From Dictyostelium discoideum (taxonomy: Eukaryota), in contig CM000154.2 of NCBI GenBank assembly GCA_000004695.1, positions 640,001-704,000 on the forward strand: a DNA stretch of 64,000 nt. Direction: 5' to 3'. Below are positions 21,020 to 63,319 of this stretch, piece after piece. The notes under the pieces were generated by a model. It did no database searches, was not told the origin of the DNA, and worked only from the letters and a program-made list of their open reading frames with translations. Every line of letters starts with the position of its first letter. Positions within the stretch are counted from its first letter, which is position 1. The position numbers and the translations under genes are program-made.

Positions 21020-21335
21020 ATTTAATTGTATACACTAAAAAAAAAAAATGAATTTTTTTTTTTTTTTTTTTTTTATTTACTTTAAAATTTTTTTATTTTT
21101 TTTTTTATTTTTTTTTTTTTTTAATTTGGTTTATTTTTTTGATGGGTTGAAGTGATAAATTAATGAAATAAAAATGAAAATGAAAAAAAAAAAAAAAAAA
21201 AAAAAAGTTTGGGAATGGAAATAAAAAAAAAAAAACCCGCAAAATTTTTAATTTTTACTTTAATTTTTTTTTTTTTAATTTTCTTAAGATTAAATAATAA
21301 ATTTTTTTTTTTTTTTTTTTTTTAATATATATATA

Positions 21336-24132: not shown

Positions 24133-24646
24133 TTTTTTAATGTTTTTTTATTTTTTTTTTTTTTCCAAAAAATTATATATATATAATTATATCTATCTTT
24201 TTTTTGTATTTATTATTGAATATGAGTAATCTGTTTTTTTTTTTTTTTTCTTTGGGTTAAAAATAAAAAAAAAAAAAAAAAAAAAATTTAAAAAATAAAA
24301 AATAAAAAATAAAAAATAAAAAAAAAACCAAAGTTTGAAAGTTTTTTCACAATTTAAAATGTCAAAAAAAAAAAAAAATAAAATAATAAAACATAAAATA
24401 AATTAAATTTTAAAATAATTTCCAAAATTAATTAGAATAATAATAATAATAAATCTTTTTTTTTTTTTTTTTTTTATAAATATATTCTTTTTTTATTTTA
24501 TTTTTTTTTTTTTTTTTTTTGTTTTCCTATTTTTAAATTTTTTTTTTTTCTTCTTTTTTTTTTTGTTTTCCTATTTTTAAATTTTTTTTATATTTTTCTT
24601 TTTTTTTTTTCCAGTTTTTAATTTTTTTTTTTTTTTTTTTTTAAAA

Positions 24647-37715: not shown

Positions 37716-38400
37716 ATGTATAAATTCTACTCAAAAATTTTACAAAACACAATTAAAAATAGTCATTTATTATTTTCTACAATAAGTTATTGCACTCGTT
37801 TTAGCACATCTCATGAATGGGTTAAAATGTTAAATAAAGGAAATATTGCAACTATTGGATTCTCAAGTTTTTCATCTGGATTTGTATTATTTTTTTTTTC
37901 AAGTTTAGAAATTTTTTTTTTTTTTTTTTTTTTAACTAATTTTATTTGTTTAAAAAAAAAAAGATAGGTAAATTTAATAATATAAAATTACCAACTGTTA
38001 ATTCTTATTGCAAATTAAATGAACCAATTGGATTAGTTGGATCACCAGATTCAACTAAAGAAGTGCTCCAATCTCTGGTAAATGTATTGAAGTAAATAAT
38101 GAATACTCAAAGAACCTAATTTAATTATTGAAAGTCCAGAAAGAAAGGGTATGTAATAAAAAAAGATAAAATTCATAAAAATAATAAATAATTTTTTACA
38201 AAGAGTTACTAAAATTATTTTTTTATATTTTTAAAAAGGATGGTTGGTAAAAATTGAAGTTGATAATCATGAAGATTTTGAAAATTTAATGACTAGAGAA
38301 GAGTATCAAAACTTTTTAAACAATAAAGTTGGTGGTGATATTAAGGATAGTGGTGAAAATATTGACAGTGGAATCCCAGGAACATTAATCTTAGGTTAAT
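37716..38400 (+). pseudogene. degenerate paralogue of glycine cleavage system H protein, lying immediately upstream of the intact gcvH
   Basis: It retains HEWV, a degraded GITDFAQ (IATIGFSSFSS), a middle region with an in-frame TAA and frameshift, and a well-conserved C-terminal exon DGWLVKIEVDNHEDFENLMTREEYQNFL (intact copy: DGWIVEYKSSKTDQFQSLMNKAQYDEYI). The lipoyl-lysine context ESVKAASD is lost. Confidence 0.45.
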
Positions 38401-38625
38401 AAAAAAAAAAAATTTGTAAACAATTCCACAAAAAAAAAAATTTGTAAACAATTCCACAAAAAAAAAAATCTAAAAAAAAAAAATCTTAAAAAAAAAAAAA
38501 ATTTCTTTAAAATAAAAAGAATCTCAAAAAAAAAGTAGTAAAAAAAACATTTTAAAAAAAAAAAATGTCTCACAAAAAAACATTTTCAAAAAAAAAAAAA
38601 AAGTTTGTTCACGTTTTCAAATTCA

Positions 38626-38657
<32 letters not shown>

Positions 38658-38741
38658 GTTTTTTTTTTTTTTTTTTTTTTATTTTTATTTTTATTTTTAT
38701 TTTTATTTTTTAACCTCTTATAGATATATACTTTTAAAAAA

Positions 38742-46250: not shown

Positions 46251-46464
46251 TATATTATATTTGTTTAATACAATGAAAAAAAAAAAAAAAAAGAAAATGA
46301 AAAAAAAAAAAAAAAAAAAAAAATGAAAAAAAAAAAAAAAAATAATAAAAAAAAAAAAGAATTAAAAATTAAAATGGAAAAAAAAATAAAAAAAAATTAA
46401 ATATTATGTTTTAAATTAATTATTATTTTTTTAACTTTATTTAATCATTTTTTTATTTATCTAT

Positions 46465-46499
<35 letters not shown>

Positions 46500-46712
46500 A
46501 CACTATTCTGCTTTTTTTTTTTTTTTTTTAATTTTTTTATATTTTTTTTTTTTTTATATTTTTTTTTTTTTTTTAATTTTAATTTTTTTAATTAAAAAAA
46601 AAGTTTTAAAAACAAATTCACTATTTATTTTTATTTGTATAGTATTTCTATTTTATTTTTAAAATAATTTATTTTTATCCTTAAAATTGTATTATAAAAT
46701 TAGTATAATATA

Positions 46713-49217: not shown

Positions 49218-49364
49218 ATATAATATATATATATTGAGTATTAAAATTTCAATTGAATGTAATACCTTTTATAATTTGAAATAAATAAAAACTAAATACA
49301 ATTTTTTAAAAAAAAAAAAAAAAAAAAAAAGTTAACTGAGAGTTTTTTTTTTTATTTTTTGTTT

Positions 49365-49402
<38 letters not shown>

Positions 49403-49692
49403 TTTTTTTTTTTTAAAATTTAATTTAAAAATAAATATTTTTTTTTTTTTATTTCTAGAAGGAATACCCGAATCCTTATTTGAAATATTAAAATAAAAAA
49501 ATAAATAAAAATTAATATAAGCAAAATAAAAAAATAAAAAAATAAAAAAATAAAAAAAAGCCACAAGTCTCAAAGTTTTCGATTATTTGTTACCAGAAAA
49601 TAAAAAATATAAAACTAATATAAAAATACAAAAATGAAATAATATATTATATTATTGATATATATACATTATAATATTATATTTAAGTAAAC

Positions 49693-53293: not shown

Positions 53294-53340
<47 letters not shown>

Positions 53341-53715
53341 TGTTCTAATTTAATTTTAAAAATGACATTATTTTAATAGGGTGGCCTTACCAGCATCAAA
53401 TTTTATCCTTTCGAGACCCATTTGGTGGGATGTGTGGAGAAATCCATACAGTTGGTTTGATTCTAATCTTGAAATCAAATAAATCTTACCATCTGTTTTT
53501 ATCGACACTGAGTTTGGTGTATTTTATTTGGTAATAATTGCATTATTGCTTACTAAAATTAGGTTGTTATTATTGGTGCTTTTAGACTTTTTTGATTAGG
53601 TGAGGGATTTTCTTTCTTTTTTCCCAAAAAAATTTATTAAAAAAAAAATTATAAAAAATAAAATAAAACATTCAAAATAATGGGTTCAAATCTTGGTCTG
53701 ACCACGAATTAACAA
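53150..53715 (+). mobile_element. ORF-less retroelement-like unit: two tandem copies of an approximately 185-bp module (53150-53335, 53336-53520) plus about 190 bp ending in tcttggtctgaccacgaatt; possibly a TRE5-type A/A/B/C-module derivative
   Basis: The direct repeat is seen (about 90 % identity between copies; the first copy ends in T30). The 3' motif is shared with the end of the element at 35005-35040. GC content is above the host background. There is no coding capacity. Confidence 0.35.
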
Positions 53716-54048
53716 ATAATAATAATATTAATAAAAATAACTTAATTTTAAAAAATAAAATAAAAAGGATAGTCGACAAGTTTTTTTTTGAGGGAAAGGA
53801 AATTATATATATTTTTTTTTTTTTTTTTTTAAAAATTAGGATATTTAAAAAAAAATCATTAATAAAAAAAAAATTAAAAACAAATTTTATTGTATCTCAT
53901 TTTTTGGTATATCCTTTTTTAATTAAAAAAAAAAACACCAACCAATTATGTGTTTTTATTTTTTAATTAAAAAAAAAAAAAAAAATTGTAATAATAACAA
54001 TTTTTTGAAAATATCCCATTTAAAAAATATCTTAATTTGATTTTTTTG

Positions 54049-54090
<42 letters not shown>

Positions 54091-54102
54091 CACAAAAATT
54101 AT

Positions 54103-54136
<34 letters not shown>

Positions 54137-54188
54137 CATTTTTATTATTACCAATTTTTTTTATTATTTGTTCATTTTCATAAACAGA

Positions 54189-54591
54189 ATGAGCTTTTTT
54201 AGTAATTTATTTTCAAAACCTGAAGAGTAAGCAAATAAAAATAAAAATAATTACAACAAGATAATTTTTGAGGAAATTAAAAAAAAAAAAAAAAAATCAT
54301 TAATTAATTTTAAAAAAAAATCATTAATTAATTTTAAAAAAAAATCTAATCTTTTATTTAAATAGTAAATTAACATCTTTTCAAGTTTCAAAAGCACCAA
54401 CATTTGAAGAATTTAAAAAAACATTAAAAGATAATGGAGTCTCTGATACAACATTTGAAGATTTGTTTGAAAAAATGGTATTAATGACATTGACGTCATT
54501 TTTAGAAAAGTACCCATCAAAAGAAACTTCAAAATGTCAACATAGTAAGTTTTATTTTTTTTTCTATTTATATACCAACAAAATTATTAAT

Positions 54592-54632
<41 letters not shown>

Positions 54633-57600
54633 AAAGTTCCAACACAACCAGAATGGTTTTATTCATGTAAAACTTGTTGTAATGAATCAAACTATTATTG
54701 TAGAAATTGTTTTTTTGATGGTGAACATATTGAAAAAGGACATTCAATTTCAATGACAGAAAATTCTAGTGGTAGAGTTTGTGATTGTGGTGGTGAAGGT
54801 ATTAAACCTGAAGCATATTGTAGTAAACATATTAAATCCAATGAAAAGGTAAAGCAAGAGCTACTAAGTAAGATTCCAAGTTTCGTTAAAAAGGATATTC
54901 ACATTTTCTTTAGATACTCACTTCAATATCTTCAATATTTGTCAACTACATCAGCAACTCAACCAACAATCTCTGAAGAGAACAAAGAGGAGACCATATT
55001 AATTGGAAGTTGGTTCATTATGATAGCATCAATTTCATCGTCATTGGTTCATATGGCTGCAGAAGAAACTTCAGGAAGAGTTTTAGATTCATTAGAGAAT
55101 GGTGAATTTAAATTGAATGAACACAAACCATTACCTTACAAAATTGAAACTCATTCAATGGATGGTAACAGTGATATTATTCAACCATTTGCAAGTAAAA
55201 ATTCAAGTTTATTATCATTTGTATTTGGTAATAGTACCGCATTGCATTCTCTATTGCCATTGATCATCATTTTATATGATAATCATAAGAATTTCAAATT
55301 GGTGGTAATTGAAGAGTTTCTTAAAAACTATTCAAACTTATTTAAAAATAGAGATCAAGTTTCCACCGATATCTCTTTGAAAATGTCAAGTCTCTATTTG
55401 GGTAATAGTTTAATTTCAAAGTTTTGTACCGACTATTCAAAATATAATTACTTGGAATTGGTATTACGTGCTCATAAGAATTACTATGTACCATTGTTAT
55501 TACCATTCTATCAAACTTCAAATCCAGAGGATATCAAAAAGGATGTTATGTTACAAACTGATCTTGAAAATTTCCCAAGATTAATGAAATCCGCGAATAT
55601 TGTAAAATACTTTGTAACCGATGAAGAGAAAATGGATTTATTCTTTGAATTGGCAGGTTCTTATCATAAATTTACAACCTTGGAATATATTGACCCATCA
55701 ATTTCAACTTGTAAATTCCTTTTAAACACTGAACATTACCTTGTCAATACCATTAGAAATATTTTGACAACTATTGAATCTGAAAAAGATTTTATTTTTG
55801 ATTCTGAAACTTTGAAAAAGAAGTTTTTAGATTCAACAATTAAAAGTATCGCCGAGAAATTGGTAAAGAATATTAAAGAATTAAAAAAAAGAGAAATGAC
55901 AAATCGTTGTGGTATGATGTTAGAACATAAGGACTTTTTCGTTAATTTCACCTATGCTGAAATTCCTGTACATTTCCCATTGTTCCGTATTTTATCAGCT
56001 TTCTTATTACTTAGTGGAATGGATCCAATGGAATTGTTGACAACAAAATATAATCTAACTCAAGCTGATATCACTGAAATGGTTACAACTATTCTTTTGT
56101 TTAGATTCTGTTATATCACCTATGATATTCAATCCTCCACTGAAAATATCACCGATATCTCCATGTTGTACGATTTACATATACTTCAAGTTGGTCTCTG
56201 TTTATTGGGTACAAAGAAATTCTTATTGACTTTCTTTAATGCTTTATCATCAATCAGTCATGGTAACAATTCAAAGGTATTCGTTGATAATCTTTCCTTG
56301 TTAATCTCTGTATTCCAAACTAGAGCAAATCTTGCACCAACTAAAACTCAAGCATTCTATCATTTGTACCAAGGTGCCATGTCTGGTTTATTCTTTAAAG
56401 TTCATTTCCGTTCATTCGATATGATTTTACCAGGTTTCACTGAAAATGATATTTGTGAAAAGCATATCGAAGAGTTTACAACACCAGGTGAAACAGAAAA
56501 GCTTTTACTCGATCAAACCAATTGGAAATATTATGATAAATATTATCCATACTTTTCTTTGAACTATCGTGATTTAATCTCTTCAAATTGTTCAAAGAAG
56601 TATAAAGCCTATCAAGAATCATTGGGTTTACCAGGCAACTTCAATCCATTACCACCACAACTTGAAGAATTACCATCACAATTATCTGGTGTTTATTCAG
56701 CATTAAATGATCAATACCTTTTCGAAATGATTTTCAATGTTTTGGTTGCACCATTGCACTCAACATTTGTTGATTATGAAAATTCCTTTGAATTACAATC
56801 TGTTATCAAACGTTTATTCTCTTCAGTTCCAGTTCCACCAATCAATGAATTTTTTTATATTTTAACATTGACTTTCAAATCTTTTAAAGAACAATTCTTA
56901 CCAAAATTACAAGATTCAGAGAAATTGGAATTACAACAATCACTTCAAGAATACTTTAAATTGGATTCTGAAAATAAATTCACTTTCAAATTCCAATCAA
57001 CAATTAAAGAGAATGCAATCACTCATTTACTTCAAGTTTATCATGTTAACTTGGGTGAATCAAATGGTAAAGTTATGTTATCATTATATGATTTACTTTT
57101 AAAATATAATGAAATCATTAAAAAAGATAATTTACTTTATTCTGAATATACTTCAAATATCAATTATGTTTTCAATATTCTTTTTGAATTTGATTCTGAA
57201 ATATTTAATCAATTTAAACAACAATCAAATGTAGTTGCTGCTGTTGTTGATGTTGCTGCTTCTGCTGCTGCTGTTGATAACTCTACTACAGAAAATACCA
57301 CCACAACCACTTCATCATTAAATGTTGAAGATTCATTAAAAGATTTAAATATTAAAGATGATTCAACAACAACAACAACAACTACTGTTGATGCTACTGC
57401 CACCACCACCACTAATGAAGAAACAACAAAGAATTGTGTAATTTGTAATGGTAATGAAGAAGTTGGTAGATTATTTTCAATGTCATATATTGATTTATCA
57501 TCAGTTACATTCCAAAATGCAACTAGAACTGTTTATCAATATTCAAAGGATAAAGAGAATGGTTATGATCCACGTTATCAAACTTTTCTTGAAAACTTTT

Positions 57601-59162
57601 ACTTTATTGATATTAAACCAGGTACATCACAATACATTCCATATAAAGATGATCCAGCACCATTATTTGCATGTTATCTTTTCCAAAGGTGTCCATCCAC
57701 TTATATCTCTAGTTGTGGTCATAATGTTCACAAGAAATGTTTAGAAAAATATAATAAAACCAATCCACCACCAGTCAATACACTTTTCAACAATACCTAT
57801 AAATGTCCAAAATCAGGTTGCTCAAGAGAATGTGACATTCTCATTCCATTAGGTAAACCAGATACTTCATTAGATTTTAAATCTTCAGCCAATGAATTAT
57901 TCTCAACCATGTGTTATTTCGATTTCTTAGCTTTGATGGAAAAAGAAAACAAATACAGTATCGATAAGTATTTATGGAAATTTGTTTTACAAAATATTGA
58001 AACCTTGGAATTGAAATCAAGAAAAACCAAACTCTACAATGAATCTGAAAATGATCCAGAATACCATTTAATGAGTGAACAAGAATTCCAAAATGAAATG
58101 TTAACAACTTCACGTCTTTTCAAGGTAGTTATGACTGCAGATGTTGAACCAGAACCACTCTTACCAATTTACGACCAATCAACCTTCTTTATGGATCCAT
58201 TCACAAGTAGTAGTTATTCAGTTTACTTGGAACCAAAAGAACAACCAATTGAATTGTTATTCAAAGGTTTAGCATTATACCTTTTCAATGTACTCCTTAA
58301 TCATTGCTTTAGAAATAAAGTTGTTCCAAGTGAAAGTGCTGATAATCCAACCATCGTTTCAAAATTAATCATTGAAGAATTTAATAAACTCTTCTTTGAT
58401 GATTCAAATAAATTAAAACAATTGGATCAAAAGGTTTATTTAGAATTTAAAAATCAAATCCATCCATACCTTAGAAAACTTTTGATTTTCAATAATCTCT
58501 ACAAACCAGAATCATTGAAATCTTCAACCACTTTTGATATTTCTTTGGATGTACTTTCAGACTTTAATCAATGTATGAAGTTATTGTTTAATTTCGATTC
58601 AATTGAACTTTTATTCTCACAATTGGTTACAAAGGATTATTTAGAGTTAACTTTGAACTTCTTTATGAAAAAGAGAAAACTCAGTTCAAATATTTCAAGT
58701 TTCCCACAATTATTATGTACCTATCCACCACCACAACAATATGACTTCCTTCCAGATTTCTTTGAAATGTTGCCAAAATATGCCGATTCTATCAAAGAGA
58801 ATACTGATGTTGGTAATTGTTCAGTTTGTAAAAAGATTAACAAAATGGTTTGTTTAGTTTGTGGTGTTGGTATTTGCCCAAGCACAACTTGTAAACTTGG
58901 TCCAATCGTCCATTTATATTCTTGTCAATCCGCTCCAATAGGTTACTATCAACATGTTCCTTCTCCAAGTCTTTTTGTTTACATAACAAAACATAGTATT
59001 TTCACAAGATCATTCTCAACCTCCATTTACTTAGATAAAAATGGTAAAAAACCAACAGATCTCTCTGATTGCAATTTAACTCTTTCAAAGAAAGAATTGA
59101 AAAAACTCTTTATTAATTGGATGAATCATTCAAACTCTAATTTTTTAATTAAAAATAAATAA
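54189..59162 (+). CDS. UBR-box E3 ubiquitin ligase (N-recognin, UBR1/2/3 family); 3 exons: join(54189..54226,54366..54544,54637..59162), about 1580 aa
   Basis: The UBR box spans exons 2-3: ...KCQH|IPTQPEWFYSCKTCCNESNYYCRNCFFDGEHIEKGHSISMTENSSGRVCDCGGEG...CSKH. The C-terminal RING-H2-like region reads CVICNGNEEVGRLF...CGHNVHKKCLEKY...YKCPKSGCSREC. The UBR C-terminal autoinhibitory Cys cluster reads CSVCKKINKMVCLVCGVGICPSTTC...HLYSCQS. The donors are GA|GTAAGC and A|GTAAGT; the acceptors are aaatag and aaaaag. The phases close. Confidence 0.8.
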
Positions 59163-59273
59163 AATAATTTGAATAATTTAAATAATTTAAATAATTTAAA
59201 TAATAAAAATAAATAAATAAATAAAAATAAATAAATAATTAAATATTTAAGTTAATAAATAAAATCATTCTAT

Positions 59274-60322
59274 TTATTGAGTTAAATAAACAAAGAATAA
59301 AATAGCTAAAATTGAACTACCCCAATTAGCAACTATAAAACCAAAAATTCTACAACGATGATTATAATCCCAACCAACATGGGGGTGGAATTTGAACACC
59401 TGATAGAATAAAATGATTGGTAAAGCTGCAATGTTTACACCTAATGCTTGAGCAAATGATACAATGTAAACGCTAAACATTATATGCATTAACCAATAAT
59501 AAAAGTTTGCACTAGTGGTCGGTTAATTCCTGATGTCCAATAAATTGTTATAAAGAAAAGTGTACATGATACTATAACGTATGGAATTTCAAAAACAATC
59601 ATTTACTTACTGTATCACGTTTAAAGTATTCTTTTTGAATGAAAAACATTAGTGATACTAAATAAATTAATACCAAGTATCAATGCTTCCCAACTCATTA
59701 AAACTCTTTGTTGTTGATCAGATGAACTATCCTTTAAGTCATAAAAAGTAAAACCAATTACAAGACCAGAGATTGTACTTTGAGCAAAACTACCTATTGT
59801 ATAATAAACGTCACGAAAGTAAATTATATTTAAACGTTTATAAACTTTAATGAATTGAGTTAAATAACCATTTGCAAATTCTCTTGCTTTACCTTTATTT
59901 TCAACGACGTTGCCATCTTTACCATTTGAAATATATTTTTCTAATGTTTCTTTTGATTTTAAATGATGATCCAATTCTTGTAATACATCTTGATATTATT
60001 TTGATTGTTTCCAAACTGTTTGTCAATCAAGATTTGTTGTACCACTAATACCTGCACCAGTTGCTTCTAAAATATATTAAGCAGGATTTTCATCTTCAGT
60101 ACATGGACAAACACCATTACGTTGGAAATAAGAGGTTAAATTTTTAGATTTTTCACCTATATCACCAAAATATACTTTTTTACCACCCCTTGCTAATATT
60201 TCAAAACATAGAAAAAATAAAAATTTAGATATGATCAATTTGTAGTTCACCACTTTGTTAAAATGAGTGATGGTATCTTCACTTGGAATAATCTTAAATA
60301 TACTGTACAAGGGAGGGGCCAA
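59274..60322 (-). pseudogene. ABCG-family (PDR/White-type) ABC transporter pseudogene fragment: end of the NBD plus the first TM helices, with three in-frame nonsense codons
   Basis: The translation reads ...[68 protein letters not shown]..., then a TMD with ABC2-type helices (…YTIGSFAQSTISGLVIGFTFY…, …LMSWEALILGINLFSI…, …HIMFSVYIVSFAQALGVNIAALPIILFYQVF…). Stops replace the expected E (GAA to TAA, twice) and W (TGG to TGA). Walker A and B regions are absent. Confidence 0.55.
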
Positions 60323-60469
60323 AAAATTTTAGTTACAGATGATGATGATGATTTACCAATTGTGTCATTTGAAAAGTTTGGTGTTGATGTTTGTGATGTT
60401 AATGAGTTTGGTGTTGATGTGGATGATGATGATAATGGTGGTGAATTTTTATTAGAGTTTACAATTTGA
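60263..60469 (+). pseudogene. possible second ABCG fragment in the opposite orientation (NBD start-like [12 protein letters not shown]...KILV), abutting the fragment above
   Basis: A plus-strand ORF has an ABCG NBD-entry-like motif followed by Asp-rich junk. It overlaps the 5' end of the minus-strand fragment. The assignment is weak. Confidence 0.25.
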
Positions 60470-61011
60470 ATTGGTTGGAATGATGATTATAATGACGAGC
60501 TTGAAGTATTACTAATAGATCCTAATGGTCCTAATCCACAAACTGAAATTGCATTACTTATTGTCGAGTTTAATGGTGATGATGAAGTTGGTTATGCTCC
60601 TGGTGTTCCTCCTGAATTGGAGTTTTTCTTCCACCCAATAAACGATGGCATATTACTTTATTTTTGTATAAACTCTTTTTTCTAATTAGTAAAAAAAATT
60701 AAAAACCAAGGAAAAAAAATTAAAAATAATAAAACTATTTTAAAACATATCACATTACGATAGTGATTTTAAATCAGTAAAAGAAAAAAAAAAAAAAAAT
60801 TAAACATTTAAATAATAAATAAACTAAAATTTAATCTTTTAAATAATAATAATAAATAAAATTAAAAATAATAAATTAATAAGAATAAAACTATTTTAAA
60901 TAATCACTTTACCCTTGTGATTTTAAAATATTAGAAAAAAATAAAAAAATAAAAAAAAAATATAATTATTTGAAATATTTTTTTTTTTTATTGAAATAAA
61001 TATTATTATAA

Positions 61012-61150
61012 AATGAAATTTAAAATGTTTCTTTTTTAAAATTCAAGATTCTAACATGGCAAACAGTTAGAAATAATTAAATGTTTGCCATGTTAGAATC
61101 TTAAATTTTAAAAAAGAAACATTATAAATTTCATTTTATAATAATAGTTA
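61012..61150. repeat. long near-perfect palindrome (about 58-bp arms, about 18-nt spacer)
   Basis: Left arm taaaatgaaatttaaaatgtttcttttttaaaattcaagattctaacatggcaaaca. Right arm tgtttgccatgttagaatcttaaattttaaaaaagaaacattataaatttcattttata (reverse complement; about 3 mismatches). Seen directly. Confidence 0.7.
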
Positions 61151-61444
61151 TGAGATGATTGCTAAATGAAATACAAACTATTGTATTGGAAAGTTGTTGA
61201 CAACTAATGTTTAACCTGCAATTGGAAATGGTCTTGTTTTTTTGATTCGTAATCAGGGAGTGTTGATATATAAGATTTTATCATTTTGAATTTGTTCCAT
61301 GGTGAATGATTTTTGTATTGTGTCTTTGTCCGTATACACCATGAAACTAAAGAGATCGTGCGCTATTTCTTTTTTTGAATGTCGGAATATTCTTTAGATT
61401 TGCTTCCCAATTTTCATGAAACATAACATAAAACTTTCCAATAG

Positions 61445-62123
61445 TTAACGAACCTGAATTACCCTTGTTGAAATATGGTGGTGATCTCCCAGTTGAACAG
61501 CTTTGCTAAAGTTGGTGGTGGATATGTTGGTTGTAGAAGTAGTTGATGTATTGGTTGTAGAAGCAGTTGATATGTTGCGTGTTGTGGAAGAGGTTGGTGT
61601 GTTGATTGTAAAAGTAGTGGATTTGTTGGTTGTAGTGGTAGAGGTTGAGTGCTTTAAAAACTCCTCTTTCAACTTTGAATAATTTTTATGGGCAGCATAT
61701 TCATATAATTTATCATAACAAGGAAATCTAAGTTTAATACTATCCCAAGCAGTTTCAAAAAGATCAAAAGATTTACGACTAATACCCTTGATGAATTGAT
61801 TTGCATACTCTTCTTTTTGTAAAATGAAAGTTTTTACCAATGATTCTAAATCATCAGATTCATCAAATTTAAATATATAATCTCTATTATTATTTTTTAA
61901 AGTTTGGCATATTCTACTTGATGCTGTGGATTTACTACCTTGATATGTACAATCATCACCTTTATTGACAGAAAATCCGAAATCAATTAAAAGTGGATGT
62001 TTATTTAAAACTAAAATATTTGACGGTCTAATATCTCTATGAATTACATTCTTTTTGTGGATTGATTGAATTATATCTACCAACTAAACAATTTTTAGAA
62101 AAGTAAGTAAAATAAAAGTATTA

Positions 62124-62204
<81 letters not shown>

Positions 62205-63319
62205 TAATATTAAATAAAGTTACCTCTGAATAAAATGATGCAGGTGCACCACTGCTATCAATTGGGAGTCCTCTTGGTGAGATTTGAATAAAAAAACCTT
62301 TTTCACAACATTTAATAATTGATGGAATACCAGTTATACCCTTTAATCTATTCAACATTGAAATTTCATTGTCATATTCCAATTTTTGATGAAATACCTT
62401 GAATACTTTAGAATTATCAACAATAAATACTTGGGATGTTGCGCCAGAGAAAAATTCAACTCCTGATGTTTTTGATATTTTTAAACTGGATGGAATTGGA
62501 GTGATGTTATATTCTACATAAGACATAAGATCATAAAGATGTTGGATACCTGTTGTTAAAGGGTAGTCTTTTGTTATTTCAAACTTTTTACTACCATCTG
62601 AAAGTTTATATCTGAAAAATTTGATTAATTCTTTGTTTATCAAGAAACCAAACATTGATCCATCGTTGAAATGACGGTTTGAATTTTCAACTACGAATTC
62701 CATGTAACTAATAACTTGACCTTTATATTGTGAAGTATCTAAACTTTGATTGATTTTAATGTCTCCTGTAATATAAACCCAGTATGGTTCATATGGGAAA
62801 TTGATATCTCTTATTGCTAAATCACAAAACATTTTAGGTTTAGAGCTGCACATCATTTTAGAGGTACCATCATATATTTGGATTTTTTTTCCTTTGTTTA
62901 AAATTCTAAATATTCTAAATAACTCTTTTTGTAATGCTTTTTCATCTGTGTATTGACCTGTACTAATTTCATTTACTAAATTACCTAATTCAACCTTAAC
63001 CTCTGTTGTTGGAATTTTCCATTGTTTGAAATTGCAATTCTCTTTAATAATTCCCGAATCATTCTTTTTTGAAAAATTTTGAGAATATGTTGTTTTGCTT
63101 AAAAAAAAAACACAGTTGTTAGATATATGTAAAAAACATTATGTAAAACAATAAAAGCATTGATATTTTCTTACCTCTGTTTGAGTTCTTGATTCTACAA
63201 GGGCTTCCACCATTTTCTTTTTCCTCTAATTTTTTATTATTTTCCTCTAGTTTTTTATCTTTTTCCTCGTTATCTCTTTTCAAATTTTCAATTATTTGAA
63301 GTAAATCTTTTTCAGCCAT
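61445..63319 (-). CDS. atypical eukaryotic protein kinase-like protein; exons complement(61445..62083, 62224..~63040, 63178..63319), with the 5' junction uncertain
   Basis: The kinase core reads FSGATSQVFIVDNSKVFKVF (degenerate G-loop plus VAIK-like), then HRDIRPSNILV and IDFGFS (catalytic and DFG motifs), with no APE motif. An intron with a GTAACT donor at 62223 and a tttag acceptor at 62084 contains (AAT)n. Exon 1 (MAEKDLLQIIENLKRDNEEKDKKLEE...NR + G|GTAAGA) cannot be joined in phase to the nearest acceptor. An acceptor attaaag at about 63040 would fit. The C-terminal tail is Thr/Ser-rich. Confidence 0.55.
62113..62205. repeat. (AAT)n/(ATT)n microsatellite in the kinase-gene intron
   Basis: Seen directly. 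Confidence 0.9.

Follow-up and report, generated by a model that had tools for sequence, protein, structure and literature searches.

A near-perfect AT-rich palindrome beside an ABCG pseudogene in a structurally variable interval of Dictyostelium discoideum

The palindrome and the genes around it

The 64-kb stretch of DNA analysed here (the window; positions 640,001 to 704,000 of contig CM000154.2) comes from Dictyostelium discoideum and is of the AX4/ACTFIT type. Towards its end lies a near-perfect palindrome of 156 bp in total, placed between the 3' ends of two convergent predicted genes, a kinase-like gene and an orphan gene. The palindrome is unannotated and belongs to a known kind of element. 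A repeat search returned two arms of 74 nt each, which are 95% complementary and have an 8-nt loop between them. Base-by-base comparison shows that 70 of the 74 arm positions are complementary, that the mismatches fall at arm positions 5, 28, 49 and 71, and that pairing ends sharply at both outer edges. With stricter scoring, core arms of 65 nt are obtained (61001-61065 and 61082-61146; 2 mismatches, 16-nt spacer). The core arm contains 11 G+C, and the arms are 85% A+T. The initial annotation, which described 58-nt arms with about 3 mismatches and an 18-nt spacer, had found the same object but underestimated it. The parts of the palindrome, none of which is assigned to a strand, are as follows.

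60996..61069: left (5') arm, 74 nt (repeat search; 70/74 base by base)
61001..61022: perfect block A, 22 bp, pairing with 61125-61146, bounded by mismatches 61000/61147 and 61023/61124
61024..61043: perfect block B, 20 bp, pairing with 61104-61123, bounded by mismatches 61023/61124 and 61044/61103
61045..61065: perfect block C, 21 bp, AAGATTCTAACATGGCAAACA, pairing with 61082-61102 (base-by-base comparison)
61070..61077: central non-palindromic spacer, GAAATAAT, the 8-nt loop in the folds
61078..61151: right (3') arm, 74 nt, abutting GC-richer exon-like sequence at 61152-61444 (composition profile)

Block C is the only part of the arm without low complexity. RNA from either strand of the palindrome is predicted to form a single unbroken stem-loop, with a minimum free energy of -77.9 kcal/mol for the plus strand (z = -17.5) and -81.8 kcal/mol for the minus strand (z = -22.0), while the DNA fold reaches -61 kcal/mol (z = -22.7). 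For each of the three folds, 0 of 200 dinucleotide shuffles were as stable. Moreover, no other inverted repeat in the window exceeds 90%; the remaining long ones are low-complexity A/T tracts of 70-84%, and the runner-up in palindrome score is a poly(A)/poly(T) pair. The structure is thus real and unusual even for AT-rich DNA, as had been claimed. Long inverted repeats of 70-79% complementarity also cluster at 21041-21256, 24260-24564, 38400-38714, 46272-46593 and 49337-49572, and these appear to be low-complexity A/T-rich spacer and not true palindromes.

The palindrome is no assembly artefact, because an independent chromosome-level assembly (GCA_054883475.1; L001) is 100% identical over 3.2 kb including the palindrome, and three of four independent short-read Logan contigs, from separate runs, contain it complete and identical, with the same four mismatches. 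All four Logan contigs deviate from the window at a nearby single-nucleotide polymorphism or insertion/deletion. The fourth contig (L005, from SRR26869248) stops at window position 61055, inside the palindrome just beyond the loop, where the three others read through; such an end is a typical de Bruijn-graph break at an inverted repeat.

The genes and signals on both sides of the palindrome are listed below.

61445..62083, minus strand: last coding exon of the kinase-like gene (open reading frame list, splice reconstruction, match to P0001, tblastn, Pkinase match)
62224-63045 and 63176-63319, minus strand: further exons of the kinase-like gene (splice reconstruction)
61152..61444, minus strand: exon-like non-coding stretch, 24-34% GC, presumed 3' untranslated region (UTR) (composition profile)
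60987..60992, minus strand: first AATAAA past the stop codon of the kinase-like gene (motif scan of 60601-61500)
60263..60685, plus strand: predicted orphan gene ACTFIT_000281, 114 aa, convergent with the kinase-like gene (annotation of L001)

The AX4 model of the kinase-like gene (P0001, 520 aa) matches the spliced reconstruction at 100%, and its Pkinase match (PF00069) scores 36 bits against a cut-off of 31.7, which upholds the earlier placement of the palindrome 3' of a kinase-like gene. Apart from AX4/ACTFIT, the 90% cluster of this protein has members from just a few Logan runs (SRR268692xx), and its closest paralogues are 42% identical; judged from these sequences, the gene appears to be strain-specific. 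Its stop codon is at 61445 and the palindrome starts 294 nt downstream. The intervening stretch, 61152-61444, has no homologue elsewhere among the fetched Dictyostelium loci and no Pfam match, and an alternative gene model (P0010) puts the end of the last exon at 61281. On the other side of the palindrome, 60700-60995 is typical spacer of 7-10% GC.

In the motif scan of 60601-61500, no AATAAA was found on the minus strand between 61445 and the hairpin, and the first one (60992-60987) starts 4 nt past it. Because there is no earlier signal, the palindrome is probably transcribed as the distal part of the 3' UTR of the kinase-like mRNA. The plus strand carries many AATAAA signals between ACTFIT_000281 and the hairpin. 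As for ACTFIT_000281 itself, its first codons derive from an inverted fragment of an ABCG transporter gene (described below) and are followed by acidic sequence. It has no Pfam match and no homologue but itself among 5.8 billion proteins, and is possibly a chimeric or spurious gene model made by rearrangement.

Haplotypes of the UBR-tubulin interval

The orthologous interval was taken from six genomes by anchoring on the neighbouring gene for a UBR-type E3 ligase, and was then mapped by BLASTN; positions past 64000 (to 65845) were read via L001. Directly after the UBR gene, both D. dimigraforme (L007) and D. cf. discoideum ACTFIY (L010) have an intact gene for an ABCG transporter, 1462-1463 aa in length. 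The window retains only the 3' third of this gene, and the 5' two-thirds are replaced by other DNA. The traces of the rearrangement are the following.

59168..60198, minus strand: ABCG 3' remnant, a pseudogene with broken reading frame (78-86% identity to the intact ABCG of L010 and L007)
60260..60328, plus strand: inverted 69-nt ABCG fragment (reverse-orientation BLASTN to intact ABCG, L010 17357-17287; translation)
60674-60830 and 60835-60995, no strand assigned: two diverged tandem units of ~150 nt (self-BLAST, 73% over 143 nt)

The remnant and the inverted fragment, set against the intact gene of L010 and L007, bear out the initial annotation in placing the palindrome next to an ABCG pseudogene rearrangement. 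The inverted fragment and the tandem duplication are rearrangement scars that lie within 700 bp of the palindrome, and the duplication abuts it, ending where the palindrome begins. Approximately 4.9 kb (60330-65076) are without counterpart in the intact-ABCG genome L010. This DNA holds the orphan gene, the 150-nt tandem duplication, the palindrome, the kinase-like gene and two small genes. A search for its source gave no lead, in that the pseudo-open reading frame at 60330-60700 matches only its own locus and no Pfam family.

Other genomes differ again. In D. discoideum ACTFIW (L006) and ACTFIR (L009), the whole of window 59277-63092 is missing, the palindrome included. Both keep a frameshifted, degenerate remnant of exon 1 of the kinase-like gene (L006 15313-15445; L009 15303-15436), and because of this remnant their sequences indicate that they stem from a kinase-containing haplotype by deletion of the segment. 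D. cf. discoideum ACTFIZ (L011) carries a different, unrelated 3.1-kb insert. The interval from the UBR gene to a conserved 127-aa gene and a tubulin gene hence takes four to five architectures in six genomes, and this UBR-tubulin interval (window 59168-65845) is a structural-variation hotspot. A polymorphism between strains, which had been raised as a point to look at, is real: the palindrome is present in the AX4/ACTFIT type and missing in L006 and L009. Like the kinase-like gene, it is haplotype-specific as far as these sequences indicate. ACTFIW and ACTFIR also differ from window 53300-59276, around the UBR gene, by ~3-6% at the DNA level (BLASTN identities 94-97%). This seems high within a species and may reflect deep haplotypes or cryptic species.

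Proposed origin and probable transcription of the palindrome

The searches for further copies covered ~330 kb of Dictyostelium DNA (the window and ~265 kb of other loci), corresponding to ~1% of the genome. Within the window, a 21-nt core and a 33-nt outer segment of the palindrome have no match outside the two arms at up to 3 mismatches, and the block C 21-mer has no site with four or fewer mismatches elsewhere in the ~330 kb. BLASTN of the palindrome with both flanks against the ~265 kb returned only AT-rich chance matches, and the loci of two paralogous kinases (L012 and L013) contain neither a palindrome nor a homologue of an arm. The 21-nt core gave 0 exact matches in JGI metagenomes and GTDB genomes, as expected of collections without Dictyostelium genomes. 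Scanning the same ~330 kb for long near-perfect palindromes revealed only two, the one described here and one at L011 17478-17749, in D. cf. discoideum ACTFIZ, and both are located in the UBR-tubulin interval. The second is 272 bp long, AT-rich and unrelated in sequence, with arms of 133 nt at 84%, core arms of 93 nt and a minimum free energy of -93 kcal/mol as RNA. A 37-nt likeness of 84% between our outer arm and the L011 palindrome was dismissed as chance, since it is AT-rich, has the reverse orientation with respect to the centre and is equalled by matches elsewhere.

With moderate confidence, we propose that this single-copy palindrome arose by local inverted duplication in the rearrangement that destroyed the ABCG gene, and that transcription of the kinase-like gene probably includes it in the 3' UTR, where it would be an incidental substrate of Dicer-like enzymes. 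The rearrangement would have replaced the 5' two-thirds of ABCG with foreign DNA carrying the orphan kinase-like gene, in the AX4/NC4-type haplotype. During or soon after this event, a local inverted duplication of ordinary AT-rich flank may have given rise to the palindrome. The 3' UTR of the kinase-like mRNA would then include the hairpin as its distal part, folding into a 74-bp stem of three perfect blocks of ~21 bp, and the Dicer-like nucleases DrnA/DrnB could act on this stem. Cleavage of the 3' end of the host mRNA and some endogenous small interfering RNA (siRNA) would be expected; the locus would be an incidental 'proto-hairpin-RNA' locus and no selected microRNA (miRNA) gene.

Several observations are consistent with such an origin. 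The arms resemble ordinary intergenic DNA, the right one abutting exon-like sequence and the left one intergenic DNA of 7-10% GC. Between the arms, 4 of 74 positions (5.4%) differ; the compared haplotypes diverge to a similar degree (3-7% in DNA sequence), as would be expected if the palindrome and the rearrangement were of roughly equal age. Four points weigh against the proposal. Neither a single-arm precursor nor an empty site was found, because the DNA of 60330-63060 has no homologue in any genome reached, and the copy search covered just the small fraction of the genome given above. The predicted transcription through the hairpin draws solely on the lack of an earlier AATAAA. Finally, the even spacing of the mismatches, to which we return below, would be unlikely under neutral decay and hints at selection on an RNA.

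If the palindrome is a mere rearrangement scar, it matters little and is one more palindrome marking complex structural variation. If it is transcribed and diced, it would represent a rare small-RNA locus at birth, still polymorphic for presence and absence within a species, and its ~21-bp blocks would offer a natural substrate for studying how Dicer-like enzymes measure cleavage distance. The Dicer-like enzymes of Dictyostelium are without PAZ and helicase domains, and its miRNAs are almost all species-specific.

Small-RNA gene, fragile site or transposon

A genuine small-RNA gene is, in our estimate, unlikely. It would be driven by its own T-rich promoter on the plus strand or be embedded in the 3' UTR of the kinase-like gene on the minus strand, and DrnB/RbdB or DrnA would dice the stem sequentially into three phased duplexes of ~21 nt, with the mismatches marking borders or biasing strand choice. 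In size and stability the element is physically consistent with the class of D. discoideum miRNA loci, at the lower edge of their range: it is 156 nt long with predicted energies of -0.49 (plus strand) and -0.52 (minus strand) kcal/mol/nt, compared with 105-179 nt and -0.51 to -0.73 kcal/mol/nt for the known loci (Liao 2018, PMC6161686). Several of these are near-perfect hairpins, for instance mir-1184, mir-1185 and mir-1178, while mir-1180 and mir-7102 each give two adjacent duplexes (PMC6161686). The energy of the 156-nt element lies below the limit used by Liao 2018 (< -0.2 kcal/mol/nt), and its pairing exceeds the 60% of duplex bases taken there as the minimum, with 70 of 74 stem positions paired and the three blocks paired at 100%. 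Like the D. discoideum miRNA hairpins (PMC6161686), the palindrome would form a long AT-rich near-perfect stem-loop, has upstream of it a T-rich tract ending in G (of a kind common in this DNA), is intergenic and pseudogene-associated, and has a stem that fits several adjacent 21-nt duplexes. Unlike the typical ones, it has a longer (74 bp) and more perfect stem, is confined to one haplotype group, and is absent from the published lists compared. The longer and more perfect stem would be expected to favour siRNA-like over precise miRNA processing.

The arrangement of the stem shows an odd regularity, and on this account a phased small-RNA hairpin is the chief rival of the origin proposed above. 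From the outer end to the loop, the perfect runs measure 4, 22, 20, 21 and 3 bp, each separated from the next by a single mismatch. Under random placement of the mismatches, the probability that all three gaps measure 21-23 nt is ~2e-4 and that no gap is shorter than 21 nt is ~9e-4. For the 65-nt core, with its two internal mismatches only, the probability that all three blocks reach at least 20 bp is 0.005. All these values were computed post hoc, which counts against the small-RNA gene as far as this statistic is concerned. The spacing differs from the pattern that would best break a palindrome (five equal runs of 14) and matches what is expected of three Dicer-sized units. Moreover, the L011 palindrome has mismatches without periodicity, so such palindromes do not generally show a pattern of 21-bp blocks. 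We know of no rule that functional hairpins show such block spacing, and we take it as modest support for a small-RNA gene, not as proof. The mismatches of mir-1180 argue the other way, in that they fall inside its duplexes and not only at unit borders (PMC6161686).

Two further features seem to favour a small-RNA gene. One is the 21-mer of block C' (UGUUUGCCAUGUUAGAAUCUU), which is of normal complexity and has U as its first base; the other, on the plus strand 3 nt upstream of the hairpin, is a T-rich tract ending in G.

60968..60993, plus strand: T-rich tract (18/25 T) ending in G, 3 nt before the hairpin, resembling the pri-miRNA start motif (sequence)

The start motif of pri-miRNAs consists of a G start preceded by up to 26 T-rich nt and lies within ~140 nt of the transcript start (PMC6161686). 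However, the motif is not specific. T-rich-G sites occur 1.75 times per kb per strand in this DNA and 13% of positions are within 140 nt of one, and because such sites are common the tract carries little weight. A scan for bacterial-type promoters and terminators was uninformative. Blocks A and B are of low complexity and match AT-rich DNA everywhere, and no candidate target was met in the ~330 kb, where block C has no site with four or fewer mismatches. In addition, all other species and most strains lack the locus, and it is identical among its carriers.

Published miRNA sets also argue against a small-RNA gene. None of the 12 miRNAs in Table S1 of Liao 2018 matches the palindrome, the accessible supplementary text of Liao 2018 and Edelbroek 2024 contains no match to 10- to 19-mers taken from parts of the arm, and core 15-mers had none in the full text of 8 million papers. 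Both studies used hairpin-based discovery in AX2/AX4-type cells. The absence of the palindrome from the lists of these two studies argues against an abundant, precise small-RNA output. The miRNA/siRNA precursor type put forward in the initial annotation holds for the structure, which lies at the lower edge of the range of miRNA loci, but not for membership among the published ddi-miRNAs compared. Two superficially attractive identities were rejected. The locus of mir-1183, whose coordinate is similar, maps to another chromosome and differs in sequence; the thug-S repeat, which yields Dictyostelium miRNAs, is longer, multicopy and intron-containing.

Rfam gave no matches over the whole window at gathering thresholds. 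At relaxed settings, mir-3119, mir-759, mir-5728, MIR2630, MIR7504 and MIR5998 appeared below threshold (best 45.4 bits versus 80). The models of mir-3119, mir-759 and mir-5728 align end to end on both strands and, like the palindrome, describe near-perfect hairpins. However, the scores of 33-45 bits fall short of gathering thresholds of 80-100, and these are animal families whose likeness is structural only. Hairpin RNA (hpRNA) loci of Drosophila and the proto-miRNA genes formed by inverted duplication in plants have arms homologous to a parent or target gene and undergo rapid birth and death. The palindrome resembles them as a lineage-specific, near-perfect inverted repeat that would give Dicer-dependent 21-nt siRNAs if transcribed. 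It differs from them in that no arm homology to a parent or target gene was found in the ~330 kb of Dictyostelium DNA.

A stronger version of the same idea, which we regard as quite unlikely, is that the palindrome constitutes a young haplotype-specific hairpin-RNA gene within the 3' UTR of the kinase-like gene, with three dicing units of ~21 bp set off by the mismatches. Cleaving it sequentially, the PAZ-less Dicer-like enzymes would then both degrade the host mRNA in cis and liberate three phased duplexes.

A further possibility is that the palindrome is not a by-product but a driver, that is, an AT-rich cruciform-forming fragile site that helped to cause the rearrangements, like a small counterpart of the human palindromic AT-rich repeats (PATRRs). 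PATRRs are AT-rich, cruciform-prone palindromes of several hundred bp at rearrangement hotspots. The palindrome shares with them the near-perfect AT-rich structure, the short spacer, the structurally polymorphic region and the presence in some haplotypes only. The number of architectures in the UBR-tubulin interval, the location there of both long palindromes of the ~330 kb and the strongly favoured DNA hairpin all agree with such a role. However, it is only 156 bp long, and the haplotype boundaries, at ~59276, 60198-60330, 63093 and 65076-65845, do not coincide with its centre or edges. It is also identical in the spanning Logan contigs from several independent runs, the 5.4% divergence of its arms suggests that it has apparently long been stable, and the loci compared are orthologous and hence a small, non-independent sample. 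The fragile site that had been suggested earlier is therefore borne out as regards the hotspot and the presence/absence differences between strains, but not as regards breakpoints at the palindrome, and we consider a driving role very unlikely.

The least probable reading, which we consider highly improbable, is that of a miniature foldback or MITE-like (miniature inverted-repeat transposable element) transposon, or of the terminal inverted repeats (TIRs) of an internally deleted DNA transposon (Tdd-4/Tdd-5 (Ginger2) or DDT). The two long inverted arms with a short loop and sharp outer boundaries do resemble foldback elements, MITEs and Tdd-4/Tdd-5 TIRs (PMC2836005), long TIRs are typical of Tdd-type elements (50-180 bp in the relatives of Ginger2; PMC2836005), and the palindrome sits within presumably foreign DNA. 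The Tdd-4/Tdd-5 (Ginger2) elements have TGTNR termini and 5-bp target-site duplications (PMC2836005). The palindrome differs in having termini of the form ATAAA.../...TTTAT and unequal 5-bp flanks (TTGAA and GAGAT), with no target-site duplication, although a palindromic TA duplication could be hidden within the repeat. It is, moreover, single-copy in the DNA searched (~1% of the genome), and its arms, at 85% A+T, resemble the local spacer DNA. A transposon origin is thus not supported by these sequences, and neither is the proposal of fused TIRs left by an excised transposon, on the same grounds of copy number, target-site duplication and termini. To our knowledge, no MITE family has been described for D. 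discoideum.

Two minor observations concern the neighbouring DNA. Each of the tandem units to the left of the palindrome contains an AATAAA and, after it, a mini stem-loop, ATCAC-N9-GTGAT (at 60749-60767 and at 60903-60921), of which the stems are conserved and the loops differ. In the kinase-like gene, the 140-nt intron at 62084-62223 consists almost wholly of (ATT)n/(TAT)n microsatellite; of the four short-read assemblies, three are interrupted within it and the fourth starts just short of it.

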